Origin: Candidatus Marinacidobacterales bacterium
Lineage (GTDB): Bacteria; Acidobacteriota; Vicinamibacteria; Marinacidobacterales; DATDRI01
Direction of reading: 5' to 3'
Assembly: GCA_965226495.1 (NCBI GenBank)
Contig: OZ245365.1
Span: 832,001-896,000, forward strand
Length of the DNA stretch: 64,000 bases
Of this stretch, positions 32,751 to 43,558 are shown in pieces. The translations under genes were made by a program, and so were the position numbers. Under the pieces are notes generated by a model, which was given only the letters and a program-made list of their open reading frames with translations, ran no database searches and had not been told where the DNA came from. Positions within the stretch are counted from its first letter, which is position 1. Every line of letters begins with the position of its first letter.

Positions 32751-35132
32751 ATGCGTGGAAGAAAGGTAACGCTTCTCCCAATGCTGCTGGCGCTCGCGGC
32801 GGCCTGCAGCGAGTTGCCGAGAAAGCAGCCTGTTTCGCTTCTCGATCCTTCTCTGCCTTCCAGGGAAGTGGTGTTGGAAGGAGAGTCCCGAACTGCGTTT
32901 GACGGCTCGAAGCGGGTGTTCCCGCTCAAGGTGCCGCAGAACGCCGTACTCCAGTTCTCGATGGCCGTGTTGGGCACACCCAGCCCCGGTCTGCCTGAGA
33001 CAGAGTTTCTGATCGAGATCGAAGTCGATGGCAGGCGGAGCCGCGCGTTTCGCGAAACCCTTGCTGCACATGGGGAAAATCATTGGAACGATCGCATGGT
33101 TGACCTCAACCCATGGGAGGGGAGAGTGGTCTCGCTGAGATTCACCGCGAGATCTTTGCCGGACACCTCGGGTGGGGAGCATCGGCAGTCACTAGTTCCG
33201 GTTTGGGGAGAGCCGGTCTTAGCGAGTGTCCATGCGCAACCGGTTGGGCAAGCGGTGGCGCTCTTCAATGAGTGGCATCGCCGAGCCGGCCGAACGCGCG
33301 CGGTAGGCGATACAAAGTTCAGCCACGACCGTGGCTTCTATGAGGACCCCCTGGAAGTTACTATCGCCACCGCCACTCCCGGCGCGACCATCGTCTATAC
33401 GACGGACGGCAGTGAGCCGAGCGCGAGCAATGGCATCGTCGGCGACAAGGTTGTTGTGGAAAAAACGACCGTCCTTCGAGCCATGGCGTACAAGCCCGGT
33501 GCGAGGAGCACCAACGTCGACACGCATACCTATTTATTTCCCACGACGGTAAAGAAGCAGGCGACTTTGCCATTCGATTATCCAGCGCCCTTCCGCTCTT
33601 TCAATATGGCTCCGCGCGCAGATCTCGACCTCGAAATCGATCCCGATGTCGTGAACACGAGCAACGAACTGGAGTTCGTGGAAGGATTAACCTCGATCCC
33701 CACACTCTCCGTCGTCATGGACGCGGAGCATCTTTTTGGTGAGAGCCAAGGACTCTACTTTCAGGAGGGCGCACTAACCCGTCCCGCATCGGTTGAGCTC
33801 CTTTATCCCGGGACGTTTCCCGATTTCGAAGGTTTCCAGGTCGATTGTGGAATTAGAGCCCACAGCGTGACACGAGCGAGTGAAAAACGTTCGTTTCGCC
33901 TTATTTTCAATAAAGATTTCGGTCCGGGCATGCTGAGATACCCTTTTTTCGAGAGCGCCGTGCACCACGCCGAGTCTGCGGTGCAAGAGTTCAACACGAT
34001 CGTGCTACGGGCCGGGGGACAAGCAAATTGGTCGAGAGCCGGCCATATCAGCGAGTTGGCGGTCTATGTCCGCGACCAACACGCTCGCGACGCGCAACTT
34101 TCTTTGAGCGGTAACGCCGCGCACGGAATTTTTGTGCATCTCTATCTGAACGGGGTTTACTGGGGGGTGTACAACGCGGTGGAGCGTCCGGATCCTCGAT
34201 TCCTCGCTTCCTATTATGGTGGCGATCCGGCCGCCGACTGGTTTGCCATCAACCAGTCCGGCGCGGTTGGGAACCCGAACCCCCGGTGGCACGGCATGCA
34301 CCGTTATGCGCGTGACAATGTCCTCTCGGATCCGGCGAAGTACGAGGAGATGAAAACCTTATTGGATACCGCCCAGTTTAGTGACTACATCTTGCTCAAT
34401 TGGTTGGCCGGCATGGGGGACTGGGGTGACAAGAATTGGTATGGAGGAATTCGGATTCACCCTCCCGGTTCAGGATTGTATTTCTGCTGGGATTCGGAGA
34501 TCACCTACGGGCTCCTTGCCAATTACGGCCACGCGGGGGCATGGGTTCCGCCTAAGTTCGTATCGGGCGGGACGACCCCGTTGCACAAACTGTGGATGGC
34601 GTTGGCTGACAGCCCGGAATTCAGATTGGAGTTCGCGGATCGCGTCTACCGCGCCTGCTACGACGGCGGCCCGCTCACAGACAGCGTAAGCAAGGCCAAT
34701 TTCCGAAGGCTCGCGGATTATGTGGAGCCGGCGATGCTTTGTGAGTCGGCCCGATGGGGCGACTCCAGTCCCGGCAGAAAAAACAAACCTCGAACGCGAG
34801 ACGTGCATTGGAAAAGATCGAGGGACTACGTCCTCGAATTGATGGACGGAAACGTCGAAAGGTTTATTCAAGCGCTTCGCCGACACTCTTATTACCCTTC
34901 GATCGACCCTCCTGTGTTCGAGCGAACTCCTGATGGCATTACCATCAGCCGCCCGGAGGGAGCGGAAAGAGTCTATTACACGCTCGATGGCCGCGATCCA
35001 CGAGACCCGACGGCGCTCAGTTTCAGTGAAGCCGTTTCTACGGTTCCTTTCTCTCGCAACCTCAAGGGGCGTTCGCGACGAGGCAAGGAGTGGAGTGCCC
35101 TGAACGAATTCGGGATTTGGGGACAAGAGTAA
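32751..35132 (+). CDS. lipoprotein with Fn3-like (chitobiase C-terminal) domain and CotH kinase domain
   Basis: LAAAC lipobox; YTTDGSEP; KRSFRL, LYLNGVYWGVY..ERPD, DW..KNW, WDSE, ESARWGD. Confidence 0.85.
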   Translation: MRGRKVTLLPMLLALAAACSELPRKQPVSLLDPSLPSREVVLEGESRTAFDGSKRVFPLKVPQNAVLQFSMAVLGTPSPGLPETEFLIEIEVDGRRSRAFRETLAAHGENHWNDRMVDLNPWEGRVVSLRFTARSLPDTSGGEHRQSLVPVWGEPVLASVHAQPVGQAVALFNEWHRRAGRTRAVGDTKFSHDRGFYEDPLEVTIATATPGATIVYTTDGSEPSASNGIVGDKVVVEKTTVLRAMAYKPGARSTNVDTHTYLFPTTVKKQATLPFDYPAPFRSFNMAPRADLDLEIDPDVVNTSNELEFVEGLTSIPTLSVVMDAEHLFGESQGLYFQEGALTRPASVELLYPGTFPDFEGFQVDCGIRAHSVTRASEKRSFRLIFNKDFGPGMLRYPFFESAVHHAESAVQEFNTIVLRAGGQANWSRAGHISELAVYVRDQHARDAQLSLSGNAAHGIFVHLYLNGVYWGVYNAVERPDPRFLASYYGGDPAADWFAINQSGAVGNPNPRWHGMHRYARDNVLSDPAKYEEMKTLLDTAQFSDYILLNWLAGMGDWGDKNWYGGIRIHPPGSGLYFCWDSEITYGLLANYGHAGAWVPPKFVSGGTTPLHKLWMALADSPEFRLEFADRVYRACYDGGPLTDSVSKANFRRLADYVEPAMLCESARWGDSSPGRKNKPRTRDVHWKRSRDYVLELMDGNVERFIQALRRHSYYPSIDPPVFERTPDGITISRPEGAERVYYTLDGRDPRDPTALSFSEAVSTVPFSRNLKGRSRRGKEWSALNEFGIWGQE

Positions 35133-35139
35133 CCTAGAT

Positions 35140-37662
35140 TCACTCTTGGCCCAGATCTTCAATCGCCTCTCTTATGGCGTGCGTGGCGCTCTGGTAGTCC
35201 TCGCTCTCCGCGAAATGTAGTGCAGGGCCCATTCGAATATGCACCGCGCCGGTTCGTGGCCAACTATCGTGCAGCGAGTAGATTTCGAACATCCCTTGGT
35301 GGTGGATGGGGATCACCGGAAGTCGGAGTCGAACCGCCATGAGTCCGATACCGTTCTTGAACGGCTTTAGTGTGCCGTCCGGGGAACGTTCACCCTCGGG
35401 GTAAACCAGGGGGCAAAAGCCTCGGTCGACGAGCTCGCCCGTGAATCGGAGTGCCCTTCGCACACCGGTCATCTCGTGAGGAAGGGGGTAGGCGTTGAAG
35501 AGACAAGTGGCCAGATAATACTCGATCATATTTCGCCATCGAGTTTTCAACGGGTGGCCGCTCGGGTCGAAGTAGGCACGGAACCGTTCCTGCATCATGG
35601 CCGGTGCGACCCGATGGCGCCATGGCATTGGCAGGGAAGCCATGATGACCGGCGTATCGAGATGGCTGTTGTGGTTGGCCGCGAAAAGCACGGGCCGCGG
35701 TTGGCCTCGCAAATTCTCGAGCCCGTCGACAGAAAGCTCGATGTAGTGGCGGAGCAGAGGCCAGAACAAGAGCTCCGAGATCGCGGCGCTCGCCCACCTT
35801 ACGGGCCGCGAACGGTCCCAGCGAGGCAATGCTTCGCGTGAAAGAGTCTCGAAAGGCGATTGGGTGGCTGTGGGCCGCTCTCGTTCGAGCCTGGCCCTCA
35901 AAGCGCCGACAGTTTTCGACTCGGAGAGAACCTCCTCGTCTAGGGCGACCCCGTAGGCCTCCTCCAACTGCGACAACAAATCGAGCTGTTCCAGCGAGGA
36001 TAGACCGAGGTCCTCGGAGAGGCGGAGGTCGTCCCGCAGGGTTGCAGCCTCGCGACTCGAGATCTGAGCCAAGATTCCCATGACTTCGGTAGCCGGTCTC
36101 GGCTCCGACGGTGCGGGCTCGACAGCCTGGAGGCGGTTCAGCACTTCGCGACGTTGGATCTTCAAGGTCGAGGCGGTGCGCGGGAAGTCTACATCGGGCC
36201 AAACGCTCCACGAACGAATGCGCTGGTGAGGTTCCAGAGACTCGTTGGCCCGGCGAACGAGGCTTTCGACGTCTCTTTTGGGATCACTCAAGAGAAAGAC
36301 GGCATGTACTTGTTCGTCCCCCTGGCTGGGTAAAGCCAGTACGACGCTCTCTCTCACTTCCGCGAACTGGTTGAGGATCGACTCGACGTCTTGTGGGAAG
36401 ATATTGAGGCCGTCGGCTGTGACGATCACATCTTTCTTTCTGCCCAGGAAGTAGAGCCGTCGATCCTCGTCGATGCGGCCGAGATCCCCCGTGTGTAACC
36501 ACCCTTCATCGTCGACGAAAGTGTCCTGATCGCCTCGCCGCGTCGGTGTTTGCCCCAAGTATTCCGAGACCACGCTTGCTCCCCGAACCAGGATCTCGCC
36601 GTCCGGCGCAATCGCGACTTCTTGATCGCCTACGACTTTTCCGAGCGAGCCTGCGCTCGTGTGGAACGGGTGATTCACGGTAACCACCGGACTCGTCTCG
36701 GTGAGCCCGTAGCCTTGCACGACAACGAAACCCAATCGCCGCCAAAAAGATTCGTCTTCAGTGGACAGCCGCGCCCCTCCTACGACAAGCGCCCAAAATT
36801 TCCAGCCGAGGTCACGGTGGAGCGGCCGGTTGCTCCACCAGCCCTCTTTCGGAGGCGATGGGAGTCGCGGCTCTATCTGGTGCCGCAGATTCTTTAGGAC
36901 TTGGGGGACGCCGACCAACACAGAGACTCGCTCGCGGCGCAGAGTCTCTATGATCGCGCCCGGTTGAAGCTCCTTTACGAATACCGCCGATCCACCGAGG
37001 AGGACGGGAATGAAGAGCCCGAGCGACTGTCCGAAGAGATGGCTCAGGGGAAGCAGGTCGAGAATGCGAATCGGTTGAAAGGGACGGGCGAGTTTCTTGT
37101 ATTTGTCGATCTCTCTAGCGATCGGCGTCAGGTTGGCGCAAAGGTGTCGCTGTCGGTGAACGACACCTTTTGGCACGCCCGTTGTACCTGAGGTGAAAAC
37201 GATCTGAACGACGTCATCTTTCGAGGGTATCGAGGGTCTGACGTCGATGACGTCGTGATCAGCCAAGGCCGCCACGTCCTCGAAGGAAAGTCTCCGAAGT
37301 TTCTCATTTTTCGCCCCATTCGCCGTGACCTGAGCGCCATGCACGAGCCACCGTGCGTTGACCGTTTCTTGAATCCGGGTCATCAGCTCGGGAGAGGATC
37401 GGAAATCCAGAGGGACCACCTCCACACCCCGGGCGATCGCGGCCCAAAAAACGGCGACCCACTCGGGCCGGTTCTCGCCCCACAGGAGCAGGCGATCGCC
37501 CTTGCGTGCTTCTTGGCTGTCGAGAAAATGTACGAATCCAGAAATGTGACGGTAGAGTGCCCGGTAGGAGAGCGTCCAGGTTCGGAAACCGTTGTAATAC
37601 CGGATGGCCTCGCGGCTGCCGAGGCGCTTAATCTCAGGGAAGAGTTCGACGAGCGTTTGCAT
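35140..37662 (-). CDS. long-chain acyl-CoA/ACP synthetase - carrier domain - PlsC acyltransferase fusion
   Basis: FTSGTTGVPKG, GYGLTE, HTGD; LGLSSL carrier motif; NHNSHLD, YPEG. Confidence 0.9.
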   Translation of the reverse strand: MQTLVELFPEIKRLGSREAIRYYNGFRTWTLSYRALYRHISGFVHFLDSQEARKGDRLLLWGENRPEWVAVFWAAIARGVEVVPLDFRSSPELMTRIQETVNARWLVHGAQVTANGAKNEKLRRLSFEDVAALADHDVIDVRPSIPSKDDVVQIVFTSGTTGVPKGVVHRQRHLCANLTPIAREIDKYKKLARPFQPIRILDLLPLSHLFGQSLGLFIPVLLGGSAVFVKELQPGAIIETLRRERVSVLVGVPQVLKNLRHQIEPRLPSPPKEGWWSNRPLHRDLGWKFWALVVGGARLSTEDESFWRRLGFVVVQGYGLTETSPVVTVNHPFHTSAGSLGKVVGDQEVAIAPDGEILVRGASVVSEYLGQTPTRRGDQDTFVDDEGWLHTGDLGRIDEDRRLYFLGRKKDVIVTADGLNIFPQDVESILNQFAEVRESVVLALPSQGDEQVHAVFLLSDPKRDVESLVRRANESLEPHQRIRSWSVWPDVDFPRTASTLKIQRREVLNRLQAVEPAPSEPRPATEVMGILAQISSREAATLRDDLRLSEDLGLSSLEQLDLLSQLEEAYGVALDEEVLSESKTVGALRARLERERPTATQSPFETLSREALPRWDRSRPVRWASAAISELLFWPLLRHYIELSVDGLENLRGQPRPVLFAANHNSHLDTPVIMASLPMPWRHRVAPAMMQERFRAYFDPSGHPLKTRWRNMIEYYLATCLFNAYPLPHEMTGVRRALRFTGELVDRGFCPLVYPEGERSPDGTLKPFKNGIGLMAVRLRLPVIPIHHQGMFEIYSLHDSWPRTGAVHIRMGPALHFAESEDYQSATHAIREAIEDLGQE

Positions 37663-38930: not shown

Positions 38931-39016
38931 GGCGGGTCATGTTACTCCTCAGTTGGGGATGAAGCCAAGCCCTGATAGGATCGGCCGTTATCTTTAATAA
39001 GGAGATTCGACCGAAG

Positions 39017-40090
39017 ATGCCTTCCCGCAGAAGCTTCATAGGGTTGCTGGCGGCTCCCGCCATCGCCGGCCCACTACGTAGAACTATGGTTCGTGAAAGC
39101 GAGTTCGTTCGAACCGGCAATCCCGTACTCGACACTCTGGAGCCGGTGATCACCGGATCCAATCATGTCAGCTTTCATGAGGACAAAGTGAGTCAGGTCG
39201 CCGACTGGATGGCGTACGAGTCCCTTCCATGGCCTGATTTCCGATCCCCACTCAATCCTGAGGGAAATGATCAGGACACGATGGACTTCATCTTCCTTAC
39301 GTCGACCATCAATTTCGCGTTCACAGATTTCGAGACCCACACTATTTACAAGGTCGACTACGCCGGTGGAGAGCAGTGGGACTCTTTGGGTATGGCGGCC
39401 GGCGTGAAGCGTGCCTACGACGATGGGATTCCGATCTTGGAGGGAAGCTACCTGGCAAAGGTGAAGCGGGTGGATCTCGAAAGGATCTTCAGCGGCAACA
39501 TCCCTATTCCAATGTTGGGTGAGCGCTTGGATATCTTTCGTGAAGTGGGCAAAGTGTTGGATGAGCGCTACGACGGGCGTTTCTACAACTTTGTGGAGGC
39601 CGGTCCGCCCCGTTTGTACGCAGACGGTAACGGGTTGCTGGAGCGCTTGTTGGCCGAGTTCCCGTCATTCCGTGATACCAGCATGTACCGTGGTTCCGAG
39701 GTCGCCTTCCAGAAGCGGGCACAGCTCTTGTGGTGGCAGTTACACGGACGGTTTCGGAAGAGCGGCTTCTTCAAACTGGAGGATCCCGAGGAGCTGACCA
39801 TCTTCGCAGACTACATCGTCCCGGTGGCGTTTCGCGTTTTTGGCATGATGTCGTACTCGCCGGAGCTAGAGGCGGCGATCAACGCGCGAAAGATTATTCC
39901 CGCTGACAGTGAAGAGGAAATCGAGATCCGAGCCTTCACGCTTTGGGGAGCACATCGATTGACCCAGGAGATCAACAAACGCCGTCCGCCAGAGCTGCAA
40001 GTCATCGGGCCGGTCGTCGACGGACGGCTTTGGACTCACTATCACGAGACCCATTGGCCTCATCACCTAACGATCACTACCGACTATTGA
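39017..40090 (+). CDS. queuosine salvage hydrolase family (Qng1/DUF2419) with twin-arginine-like leader
   Basis: INFAF, FPSFRD, F.KRAQL, LTIFADYIVP, EIEIRA, C-terminal PHHLTITTDY; N-terminus SRRSFIG. Confidence 0.85.
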   Translation: MPSRRSFIGLLAAPAIAGPLRRTMVRESEFVRTGNPVLDTLEPVITGSNHVSFHEDKVSQVADWMAYESLPWPDFRSPLNPEGNDQDTMDFIFLTSTINFAFTDFETHTIYKVDYAGGEQWDSLGMAAGVKRAYDDGIPILEGSYLAKVKRVDLERIFSGNIPIPMLGERLDIFREVGKVLDERYDGRFYNFVEAGPPRLYADGNGLLERLLAEFPSFRDTSMYRGSEVAFQKRAQLLWWQLHGRFRKSGFFKLEDPEELTIFADYIVPVAFRVFGMMSYSPELEAAINARKIIPADSEEEIEIRAFTLWGAHRLTQEINKRRPPELQVIGPVVDGRLWTHYHETHWPHHLTITTDY

Positions 40091-40104: not shown

Positions 40105-41367
40105 ATGAACAATCCAGCGCCTCTTCGACCATCTTGGTGTCGATTCGTCCTGCTGTTCACCGCGCTTGGTATGGGATTGGGGGCCTGCGACGAGGCGAGC
40201 GAGATGGAGATCTCGACTACCGAGGTGGCCCCGCCGCTCAGTCAGAAAGAGAGAGCGGGACAGCTCGCTCAGGAAATCATCATCGCCGATACGCACATCG
40301 ACGTACCGTACCGATTGGCCGAGAAGATGGAAGACATCTCCACCAGAACCGAGGGAGGTGACTTCGACTACCCCAGGGCCAAAGAGGGTGGTCTCGATCT
40401 CGCCTTCATGTCCATCTACGTGCCCGCCGACCATCAGGGGACCGGTGACGCCAAAGGTGTCGCGGATCGGCTCATCGATATGGTCGAGAAATTCGCCGCC
40501 GACTGGCCCGACAAGTTCGCGATCGCGACCTCGGTGGCCGACGTCAGACAACAGTTTGCTCAGGGTAAGATTTCGCTCGCGTTAGGTATGGAAAACGGCG
40601 CACCCATAGAAACCATCGAAGATCTCCTTCATTTCTACAACCGGGGGATTCGGTACATCACACTCACGCACTCTAGGGTCAACCAGCTCTCCGATTCTTC
40701 TTTTGACGTCAATCGCCAGTGGAATGGATTGAGCCCGTTCGGCAAGGAAGTCGTCGCGGAAATGAACCGCCTCGGTATCATCGTCGACGTCTCGCATATT
40801 TCCGACGAGGCCTTCTATCAGGTGATGGAGCTCTCGACGGCTCCGGTGATCGCTTCTCATTCTTCGAGTCGACACTTCACGCCAGGTTTCGAGCGCAACA
40901 TGAGCGATGCGATGATCCAGAAACTAGGCGAGAATGGTGGGAGCATCGATATCAATTTCGGGTCTTCGTTCCTCGTCGATTCGATTCGGCAGGGTGAGAT
41001 GGGGATTCGGAAATACTTCCAGGAGAACAAAGTGCGCCCGGATTCCGATGAAGGGAAAGAGTACGTCCAAAGGTATCGGGAGAAGACGGGTCTCGGCTAC
41101 GCCGACGTCAGCGATGTGATGGCTCATGTCGATCGCGCCGTCAAGCTCGCAGGAATCGACCATGTGGGGCTGGGCTCGGACTTCGACGGGGTGGGGGACT
41201 CCCTCCCAACGGGTCTCAAGGATGTCTCCTTCTATCCCAACCTTATTTATGAGCTCCTGAAGAAGGGGTACTCCGAAGAGGACATCGCGAAGATCTGCTC
41301 CGGAAACGTGCTGCGCGTGTGGTCCGAAGTGGAGCGGAGGGCGGAGGAACTCCAGGCGAGCGAGTGA
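40105..41367 (+). CDS. membrane dipeptidase (peptidase M19), lipoprotein
   Basis: DTHID, GMENG, ITLTH, DVSH, ASHS, GLGSDFDG. Confidence 0.92.
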   Translation: MNNPAPLRPSWCRFVLLFTALGMGLGACDEASEMEISTTEVAPPLSQKERAGQLAQEIIIADTHIDVPYRLAEKMEDISTRTEGGDFDYPRAKEGGLDLAFMSIYVPADHQGTGDAKGVADRLIDMVEKFAADWPDKFAIATSVADVRQQFAQGKISLALGMENGAPIETIEDLLHFYNRGIRYITLTHSRVNQLSDSSFDVNRQWNGLSPFGKEVVAEMNRLGIIVDVSHISDEAFYQVMELSTAPVIASHSSSRHFTPGFERNMSDAMIQKLGENGGSIDINFGSSFLVDSIRQGEMGIRKYFQENKVRPDSDEGKEYVQRYREKTGLGYADVSDVMAHVDRAVKLAGIDHVGLGSDFDGVGDSLPTGLKDVSFYPNLIYELLKKGYSEEDIAKICSGNVLRVWSEVERRAEELQASE

Positions 41368-43021: not shown

Positions 43022-43558
43022 ATGTGGAAGAAGAACGAAGCGAGGACGTATACTCCTCAGACCCCGACTCCGGCTCCGGCTCCGGTGAACCAGCCGGAAC
43101 GGAGCAAGAAGGAGCTGTCCATCATCGGCCCGTCGATTACGGTCAAGGGTGAGCTCTTCGGCAAAGAGGATCTCGAGGTCCAGGGAAAGGTTGAGGGTAC
43201 TATCTCGCTCAAGAAGCACAGCGTCTCGGTCGGTGAGAACGGTCGTGTCAAAGCCGACATTCATGCGAAGAGCATCCAGATTGGCGGAGACGTAAAGGGG
43301 AACCTTTTCGGCGACGATGAGGTCGTGATTTCGCGGTCCGGCCGTGTGGAAGGGGACATCAAGGCCTCTCGGGTGACACTGGAGAACGGGTCCAAGTTCA
43401 AGGGAAGTATCGACATGGAGCCCAAGTCGGAAGACAAGGAACGCGACAAGGAGCGTACGACGGACGACGACGTATCCAAGTCGGCGAAATCTCCAGACAA
43501 CGGCGGCTTCGCCAGGCAGGGCTCGTCGCTGCGCAGCGGGAGCTCCGCCCCGGCGTAA
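43022..43558 (+). CDS. bactofilin (polymer-forming cytoskeletal protein)
   Basis: SIIGPSITVKGEL..EDL.V.GKVEG.I beta-helix repeats; MWKK N-terminus. Confidence 0.92.
   Translation: MWKKNEARTYTPQTPTPAPAPVNQPERSKKELSIIGPSITVKGELFGKEDLEVQGKVEGTISLKKHSVSVGENGRVKADIHAKSIQIGGDVKGNLFGDDEVVISRSGRVEGDIKASRVTLENGSKFKGSIDMEPKSEDKERDKERTTDDDVSKSAKSPDNGGFARQGSSLRSGSSAPA

Follow-up and report, generated by a model that had tools for sequence, protein, structure and literature searches.

What would an enzyme of the Qng1 family, whose fold and catalytic residues serve nucleoside cleavage during queuosine (Q) salvage, be doing behind an export signal? To our knowledge, every Qng1 enzyme characterised so far is intracellular and acts on queuosine-5'-monophosphate (Q-5'-MP), whereas a gene of Candidatus Marinacidobacterales bacterium (GenBank assembly GCA_965226495.1) encodes a Qng1-like protein that begins with a twin-arginine leader. 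This gene lies at 39017..40090 (+) of the 64,000-nt stretch analysed here, hereafter the window (contig OZ245365.1, positions 832,001 to 896,000). An earlier note on the window had proposed either a periplasmic queuine-scavenging enzyme or a paralog with a new nucleoside substrate. Given the conserved leader and an altered substrate pocket, the encoded enzyme probably works extracytoplasmically, on a nucleoside that differs somewhat from those of the known enzymes. Specifically, we think it reasonably likely that the protein is a periplasmic N-glycosidase exported by twin-arginine translocation (Tat), a member of a distinct Qng1-like subfamily that would act on a guanine-shaped, probably 7-deazaguanine, nucleoside and not on Q-5'-MP.

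A twin-arginine leader conserved among homologues

The 357-residue product of the open reading frame (ORF), which starts at an ATG and opens with MPSRRSFIGLLAAPAIAGPLRRTMVRESEF, is the single copy of the Q_salvage family in the genome (one contig of 6.34 Mb). Its N-terminus reads MPSRRSFIGLLAAPAIAGP, of which residues 1-17 (MPSRRSFIGLLAAPAIA; 39017..39067, +) form a twin-arginine-type export leader, with R4 and R5 encoded at 39026-39031 and a putative A-I-A|G cleavage site following. Residues 18-36 (39068..39124, +) form a variable linker to the catalytic domain, with little conservation and differing lengths across alignment A1, and modelled with a predicted local distance difference test score (pLDDT) of 45-55. 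Since the alignment to the chains of S. thermophilus Qng1 (StQng1; 7UK3, 7U07) begins at query residue 37, which pairs with chain residue 10-13, the window protein possesses approximately 27 extra N-terminal residues. A Shine-Dalgarno-like AGGAG, read from the sequence at 39000..39004 (+), lies 12 nt 5' of the ATG, and its spacing is unchanged in the relatives L010 and L011, whose flanking 30 nt show 5 and 13 differences, bearing out the GGAG ribosome-binding site claimed previously.

To survey homologues, the DNA of 80 species-level loci was retrieved, out of 406 relatives found, and the sequence upstream of each was read in frame. A leader, defined as RR followed by an uncharged hydrophobic run and preceded by a start codon, was found in frame in 67 of the 80 loci, 59 by this rule and eight by eye (L014, L020, L024, L025, L030, L048, L064 and L082); it was absent in 12, and L013 was cut by a contig end. 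A first, stricter rule, requiring the uncharged run to start no more than 3 residues from the RR, gave 38/80 and was replaced because it missed typical RRxFLK leaders. An independent search of the same loci for hydrophobic N-terminal runs regardless of RR detected 64. In 60 of these, the stretch is preceded by basic residues, which are always RR and never KR, RK or KK; the other four are detection artefacts or an edge. The RR leader is real and more than a product of chance, and its arginine pair is invariant wherever a leader exists, a check on homologues that the earlier note had proposed. Among the 120 best database homologues, a loose pattern places RR near the N-terminus of 55, two of them doubtful. 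Several seemingly leaderless entries begin at a Met inside the leader (P0065 compared with P0062; P0052 compared with P0061), and many database entries of the clade have their start called within it.

The outcome that the earlier note had set against its own reading was a start at the downstream Met24 (MVRESEF) together with homologues lacking the RR leader. Translation from Met24 would yield a cytoplasmic protein, with the RR stretch being an untranslated chance sequence. Some database homologues are indeed annotated without a leader, and the 12 leaderless loci are truly so, but Met24 is replaced in L011 (…SRVRETEF) and missing in L012, the conserved AGGAG precedes the upstream ATG, and codons 1-20 of the leader that is in frame in most loci change mostly synonymously (synonymous to non-synonymous, 3:2 relative to L010 and 6:3 relative to L011). 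With the RR leader conserved and Met24 not kept in L011 and L012, refutation by a downstream start fails; Met24 was rejected as the start, and we consider this alternative very improbable.

Tat or Sec as the export route

Judged from the leader, export of the window protein is very likely, in agreement with the extracytoplasmic location proposed earlier, and Tat is the likely route, mainly because both arginines never vary. Tat-exported periplasmic hydrolases bear the signal motif S/T-R-R-x-F-L-K, and the window segment S-R-R-S-F-I-G agrees with five of its seven positions. The claimed fit to an S-R-R-x-F consensus also holds, in that RRSFI, beginning at R4, satisfies the TatP regular expression RR.[FGAVML][LITMVF] (PMC1182353). 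As had been noted, the hydrophobic stretch is short, consisting of 11 residues, hydrophobic for the most part (F7-A17), that lie within an uncharged run of 15 (S6-L20). The threshold used by TATFIND is an uncharged run of 13 residues. The genome encodes TatC (E=1.1e-67) and, by rule, 46 twin-arginine-type leaders with uncharged runs of 11-29 residues, among which the 15 residues of the window leader fall near the middle; several of the 46 have equally short MNRR or MDRR n-regions. In the AlphaFold2 (AF2) model, a low-pLDDT helix at residues 4-15 is followed by disorder to approximately residue 36 and then by the confident domain.

A number of observations tell against the Tat route. The window leader, at about 17 residues with putative cleavage at A15-I16-A17|G18, is far shorter than the mean Tat peptide of 37 residues (PMC1182353) and has no Lys after the F-L positions, and many homologues are without a clear AxA site. 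The window protein gave no match to TIGR01409 or PF10518 at E<=1; a genome scan with TIGR01409 returned 41 sites at E<=10, including 27 of the 46 regex-defined leaders, and the window leader was not among them. Across alignment A1, at E<=1, TIGR01409 matches 4 of 40 members and PF10518 matches 2 of 40. Furthermore, Qng1 works without a cofactor (PMC9881137) and its family is not known to need one, which leaves the use of Tat without an evident rationale. These features could instead describe a conventional Sec signal peptide whose n-region is basic, by which the protein would still be exported: the leader is short, its h-region is compact, an AxA-like site is present, the Tat hidden Markov models (HMMs) do not match it, and the nucleoside hydrolases encoded beside many homologues carry Sec-type signals. 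We nevertheless regard a Sec signal as improbable, as the RR pair is invariant over some 60 leaders at 48-93% identity without ever becoming KR, RK or KK, the F/L-[LIV] that follows agrees with the Tat motif, and distant clade members carry long canonical Tat leaders (e.g. P0108, P0112 and P0113).

A Qng1 fold with an altered substrate pocket

Residues 37-357 (39125..40087, +) comprise a Qng1-like domain of HhH-glycosylase fold, identified through Pfam, PDB sequence matches and AF2/Foldseek. PF10343 (Q_salvage) matches residues 80-352 with E=1.6e-60 and 205.5 bits against a cut-off of 25, phmmer and profile searches of the PDB match 7uk3/7u07 at 1e-49 and 4e-70, and an NCBIfam search returned no model for the protein. 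The AF2 model, generated from a 40-row alignment, has a mean pLDDT of 87.6, and its top 10 Foldseek matches are all Qng1/QNG1 chains with target-normalised template modelling (TM) scores of 0.78-0.90, corresponding to 0.87-0.90 for StQng1 (7UK3, 7U07, 7U91), at about 35% identity, and 0.78 for human QNG1 (7UGK). The family motifs named earlier were all recovered (QKRAQ at residues 232-236, FADYIVP at 263-269, and the C-terminal WPHHLTITTDY).

We mapped residues by HMMER alignment to StQng1, taking their roles from PMC9881137 and inferring pocket geometry from the alignment only. Kept in the window protein are the HhH Lys (K199, window K233 at 39713-39715), the catalytic Asp (D231, window D265 at 39809-39811), the two residues facing the guanine (D298 and W302, window D335 and W339) and the C-terminal Tyr (Y323, window Y357 at 40085-40087, the last residue), the free carboxylate of which, together with E267 and H316, completes the StQng1 active site (PMC9881137). 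Qng1 loses its activity when tagged at the C-terminus (PMC9881137). E267 and H316 are themselves kept as E301 and H350, as are I203 (L237), Y232 (Y266), F75 (F102) and the proton-relay residue N72 (N99), so that the conserved set includes the ribose-stacking Phe and Tyr. All 80 clade rows share D265, K233 and Y266, and D104, D122 and W240, which flank active-site positions, are equally invariant. The PF10343 match, the Qng1 fold, the catalytic Asp, Lys and Tyr, and the C-terminal Tyr place the protein in the Qng1 family.

The features that would define a Qng1 enzyme in the strict sense are not retained as such. In StQng1, D69, N72 and D207 constitute a proton relay to the side-chain amine of queuine (PMC9881137), of which D69 is replaced by S96 and D207 by Q241 in the window protein. 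In the cyclopentenediol pocket, W48, H53, Y93, W94 and W299 correspond to F75, N80, S123, L124 and G336, with P46 (window P73) being the only residue kept. All three contacts to the 5'-phosphate differ: StQng1 R80 and K233 are replaced by I110 and I267, and Q306 falls within a 3-residue deletion. The position of I267 is occupied by Ile in 79 of 80 clade rows, while the equivalent of R80 is Lys in 61 of 80 and Ile in the subclade of the window protein. In human QNG1, in contrast, the relay is intact (D, N, D), the Y-W pair persists and DY is still followed by a basic residue. With the pocket near position 7 of the base rebuilt and the 5'-phosphate site missing, a guanine-shaped nucleoside is most likely the substrate, in preference to Q-5'-MP.

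A FastTree phylogeny was reconstructed from 120 rows, after the outgroup had been thinned to one row in three and rows shorter than 250 residues removed; it is read with a midpoint root, long-branch warnings among the outgroups, and the eight leader labels assigned by eye. The window protein falls in an 82-row clade (Shimodaira-Hasegawa-like support of 100) apart from the canonical group; the canonical D/D pair (StQng1 D69/D207) occurs in 18 of 230 family rows, 10 of which were included in the tree and group separately. Of the rows in this clade, 67 carry a leader, 12 do not and the other 3 fall under neither label; the leaderless rows are nested within the clade such that at least five state changes are forced. 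That the window protein belongs to a distinct, mostly acidobacterial clade separate from characterised Qng1 is well supported by the alignment and tree.

Also identified were two peculiarities of domain composition. Seven of the 40 clade members in alignment A1 weakly match DUF1688 (PF07958; best E=3e-5), which suggests that the DUF1688 and Qng1-like families are distantly related, and in one clade member, P0121 (500 residues), the Qng1-like part follows a fused N-terminal domain of about 175 residues resembling an acetyltransferase.

Gene neighbourhoods of the homologues

Neighbouring ORFs of the 80 loci were clustered and representatives were scanned against Pfam. The commonest neighbours are IU-type nucleoside hydrolases (IUNH), which bear N-terminal signal peptides and occur at 28 of 80 loci; in many cases the hydrolase gene follows on the same strand after 9-21 nt. 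A TonB-type receptor-like protein, named by eye from its sequence and not by Pfam, is encoded just upstream at 16 loci; other neighbours include a PfkB kinase (16/80), a ureide permease (12/80) and xanthine-dehydrogenase-type subunits (6-7 of 80). NupC together with pyrimidine-nucleoside phosphorylase occurs at six loci, all six beside leaderless copies. The neighbourhoods agree with the presumed compartment of the exported and leaderless copies. Previous work found that an acidobacterial ureide permease encoded beside a qng1 homologue transported preQ0 and preQ1, which its authors had not expected; Q was not transported by it, and queuine only at very high concentration (PMC11130926).

The IU family is also that of QueK, a queuosine nucleoside hydrolase which, like the reaction considered here, releases a base from a nucleoside for salvage (PMC11130926, PMC9881137), though by an unrelated fold and mechanism, QueK being a Ca2+-dependent Rossmann-type enzyme (PMC9881137). 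Many acidobacterial loci (among L014-L088) encode two exported IUNH paralogues, one with the motif DTDPGTDD and one with the variant DQD(S/C)xGPxxT(N/D), a replacement through which the metal and ribose site may differ. Elsewhere in the window genome, three signal-peptide IUNH genes accompany a PfkB kinase and a ureide-permease-family carrier (G000:C1:2072995-2082136), and a pair of NupC and pyrimidine-nucleoside-phosphorylase genes lies at 2.009-2.011 Mb.

Queuosine genes of the host and of carrier genomes

The inventory of queuosine genes called for in the earlier note was carried out. The host genome encodes TGT, QueA, QueG, YhhQ/QPTR and two PTPS-family proteins; at a completeness of 94.8%, QueF and QueH were not found in it, nor was QueC, for which the search gave only 22-bit matches in 600-residue proteins. 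The LDEC and GGLAVGE motifs of the host TGT align to Cys158 and Val233 of the Zymomonas enzyme. Residues of this type account for preQ1 specificity, and bacterial Tgt, which in its Cys158/Val233 form binds queuine without turning it over, does not use queuine as a substrate (PMC3660597). With a TGT of the preQ1 type, QueA, QueG and YhhQ present and QueC, QueF and QueH not found, the host looks like a salvager of preQ1.

We extended the comparison to 50 genomes carrying a clade member. A full-length QueC is encoded by 31 of them and a fragmentary or divergent one by 4, and the other 15 have none. TGT is found in 48 of these genomes, including 14 of the 15 without QueC. Within the subclade of the window protein, QueC is absent in 11 of 14 carrier genomes searched. 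These tallies include three unpublished genomes (G023, G048 and G146), on which no claim rests. In a phylum sample, QueC occurs in 186 of 201 genomes, including all 17 of the same class, none of which carries the clade. QueC is absent in 3 of 4 sampled carriers versus 12 of 197 non-carriers (Fisher p=0.0013, kin not being independent), a comparison underpowered across the phylum with the clade in only 4 of 201 sampled genomes. A link to dependence on queuosine precursors holds in the lineage of the window and not in Terriglobia members. Separately, QueC matches are split into 2 or 3 adjacent pieces on contig C80 of G244 (the L074 genome) and contig C2 of G221 (the L035 genome), which could be decaying queC genes or assembly errors in metagenome-assembled genomes.

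Weighing the possible functions

Taken together, these features suggest a pathway in which the short twin-arginine leader would take the precursor over the inner membrane via Tat, and the mature form would be a soluble periplasmic N-glycosidase with the Qng1/Q_salvage fold. Within its active site, Asp265 would act as the nucleophile or stabilise an oxocarbenium, the ribose would be held by Lys233 together with the terminal carboxylate of Tyr357, and Asp335 and Trp339 would read the guanine-like face. The enzyme would thereby form part of an extracytoplasmic nucleoside-scavenging repertoire, with the released base being imported by YhhQ/QPTR or a ureide-permease-type carrier. In a host that lacks its own preQ0/preQ1 production but possesses TGT, QueA and QueG, the imported base could feed queuosine synthesis. 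The candidate substrates are Q itself, other 7-deazaguanine nucleosides and ordinary purine nucleosides.

One alternative is that the protein is simply an exported, functional Qng1 orthologue, releasing queuine in the periplasm from Q-5'-MP or Q for subsequent import and use. Its best PDB and family matches are to Qng1, whose catalytic and base-face residues it retains, the nucleoside Q is another substrate of StQng1 (PMC9881137), and the window lineage lacks QueC and QueF while keeping TGT, QueA, QueG and YhhQ, with TGT persisting in nearly all carriers without QueC. Yet the cyclopentenediol pocket, two of the three relay residues (D69 and D207, N72 being kept) and the phosphate contacts are replaced; the host TGT is of the type that does not use queuine, QueA and QueG indicate insertion of preQ1, and the permease encoded beside an acidobacterial qng1 carries preQ0 and preQ1 in preference to queuine (PMC11130926). 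We consequently hold an orthologue of this kind to be unlikely. Of the two possibilities raised in the earlier note, the paralog with a new substrate fits better, given that residues for Q and Q-5'-MP are replaced, and plain queuine scavenging fits less well, given the preQ1-type host TGT.

The opposite departure would be a periplasmic hydrolase of ordinary purine nucleosides (guanosine, xanthosine or inosine) that scavenges carbon and nitrogen and has no relation to queuosine. Consistent with this, the genes that recur beside the homologues have general roles in nucleoside and purine handling (IUNH, PfkB, ureide permease, xanthine-dehydrogenase-type subunits), the carriers with full-length QueC make preQ0 themselves, and the pocket specific for Q has been lost. 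However, one to three exported IU-type hydrolases, which should be able to process ordinary nucleosides, are already encoded in these loci and in the window genome, characterised Qng1 enzymes cleave none of GMP, AMP, UMP and CMP (PMC9881137), and the absence of QueC is enriched among carriers in the phylum sample. On balance, we rate a hydrolase of ordinary purine nucleosides as less likely still than a Qng1 orthologue.

The reading of the protein as a periplasmic N-glycosidase for a guanine-shaped nucleoside must itself contend with several findings that count against it. In the window genome, the gene adjoins no nucleoside gene. As 31 of 50 carriers have full-length QueC, the gene is not confined to Q auxotrophs, and the queuosine link is weak for the clade as a whole. 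The substrate is deduced from alignment to one solved bacterial enzyme, StQng1, and other residues might substitute in the clade, for example the Lys at the position of StQng1 R80. A more specific version is that the exported clade is a periplasmic 7-deazaguanine-nucleoside hydrolase through which preQ1-dependent Acidobacteriota would harvest queuosine precursors from extracellular nucleic-acid debris, either by freeing a preQ1/preQ0-type base directly or by freeing a base that some further step turns into preQ1. We offer this as a tentative possibility, doubtful on present indications.

Other genes of the window

The gene immediately downstream (40105..41367, +) encodes an M19 dipeptidase (PF01244, E=1.7e-95) with a lipoprotein-like signal (…GLGAC, containing a lipobox-like LGAC). 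A gap of 14 nt separates the two genes, in which no terminator-like site was found on the + strand, and for these reasons co-transcription is plausible; the two probably share one transcript. A promoter scan revealed no sigma-70-like site near the Qng1-like gene. Co-transcription with an exported dipeptidase had been put forward earlier as consistent with nutrient salvage, and while its transcriptional part remains plausible, the dipeptidase does not serve as an argument for salvage. It is adjacent at only 2 of 80 homologue loci (L011 and L013), and was rejected as a functional partner.

Upstream, the neighbouring genes lie on the minus strand and encode MgtC and DUF423 proteins. A bactofilin gene is located at 43022-43558 (+), and one also occurs 1.6-3.3 kb downstream of the Qng1-like gene in 7 of 80 loci (L011, L013, L027, L036, L042, L046 and L049); this recurrence probably represents lineage synteny with no functional link. 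Further genes of the window include one for an 840-residue protein fusing AMP-binding, phosphopantetheine-carrier and acyltransferase domains (35140-37662, -), and one for a 793-residue lipoprotein-like protein with CHB_HEX_C/Fn3-associated and CotH kinase-family domains (32751-35132, +).

Implications for the Qng1 family and queuosine salvage

Our literature search found no paper pairing Qng1 with 'periplasm' or DUF2419 with 'signal peptide', and the words periplasm and signal peptide are absent from the two key papers (PMC9881137 and PMC11130926). The automatic annotation 'queuosine salvage protein' is probably too specific for the clade described here. If the export reading is true, the subfamily would be novel on two counts: part of 7-deazaguanine or nucleoside salvage would take place beyond the cytoplasm and, if the pocket is indeed rebuilt without a phosphate site, the Qng1 family would act on more than a single substrate. 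These results also offer a testable explanation for a puzzle in PMC11130926, namely the unexpected transport of preQ0 and preQ1 by a permease encoded beside an acidobacterial qng1 homologue. Were the exported clade to hydrolyse 7-deazaguanine nucleosides, this would explain why a ureide-type permease beside an acidobacterial 'qng1' transports preQ0 and preQ1, and not Q or queuine.

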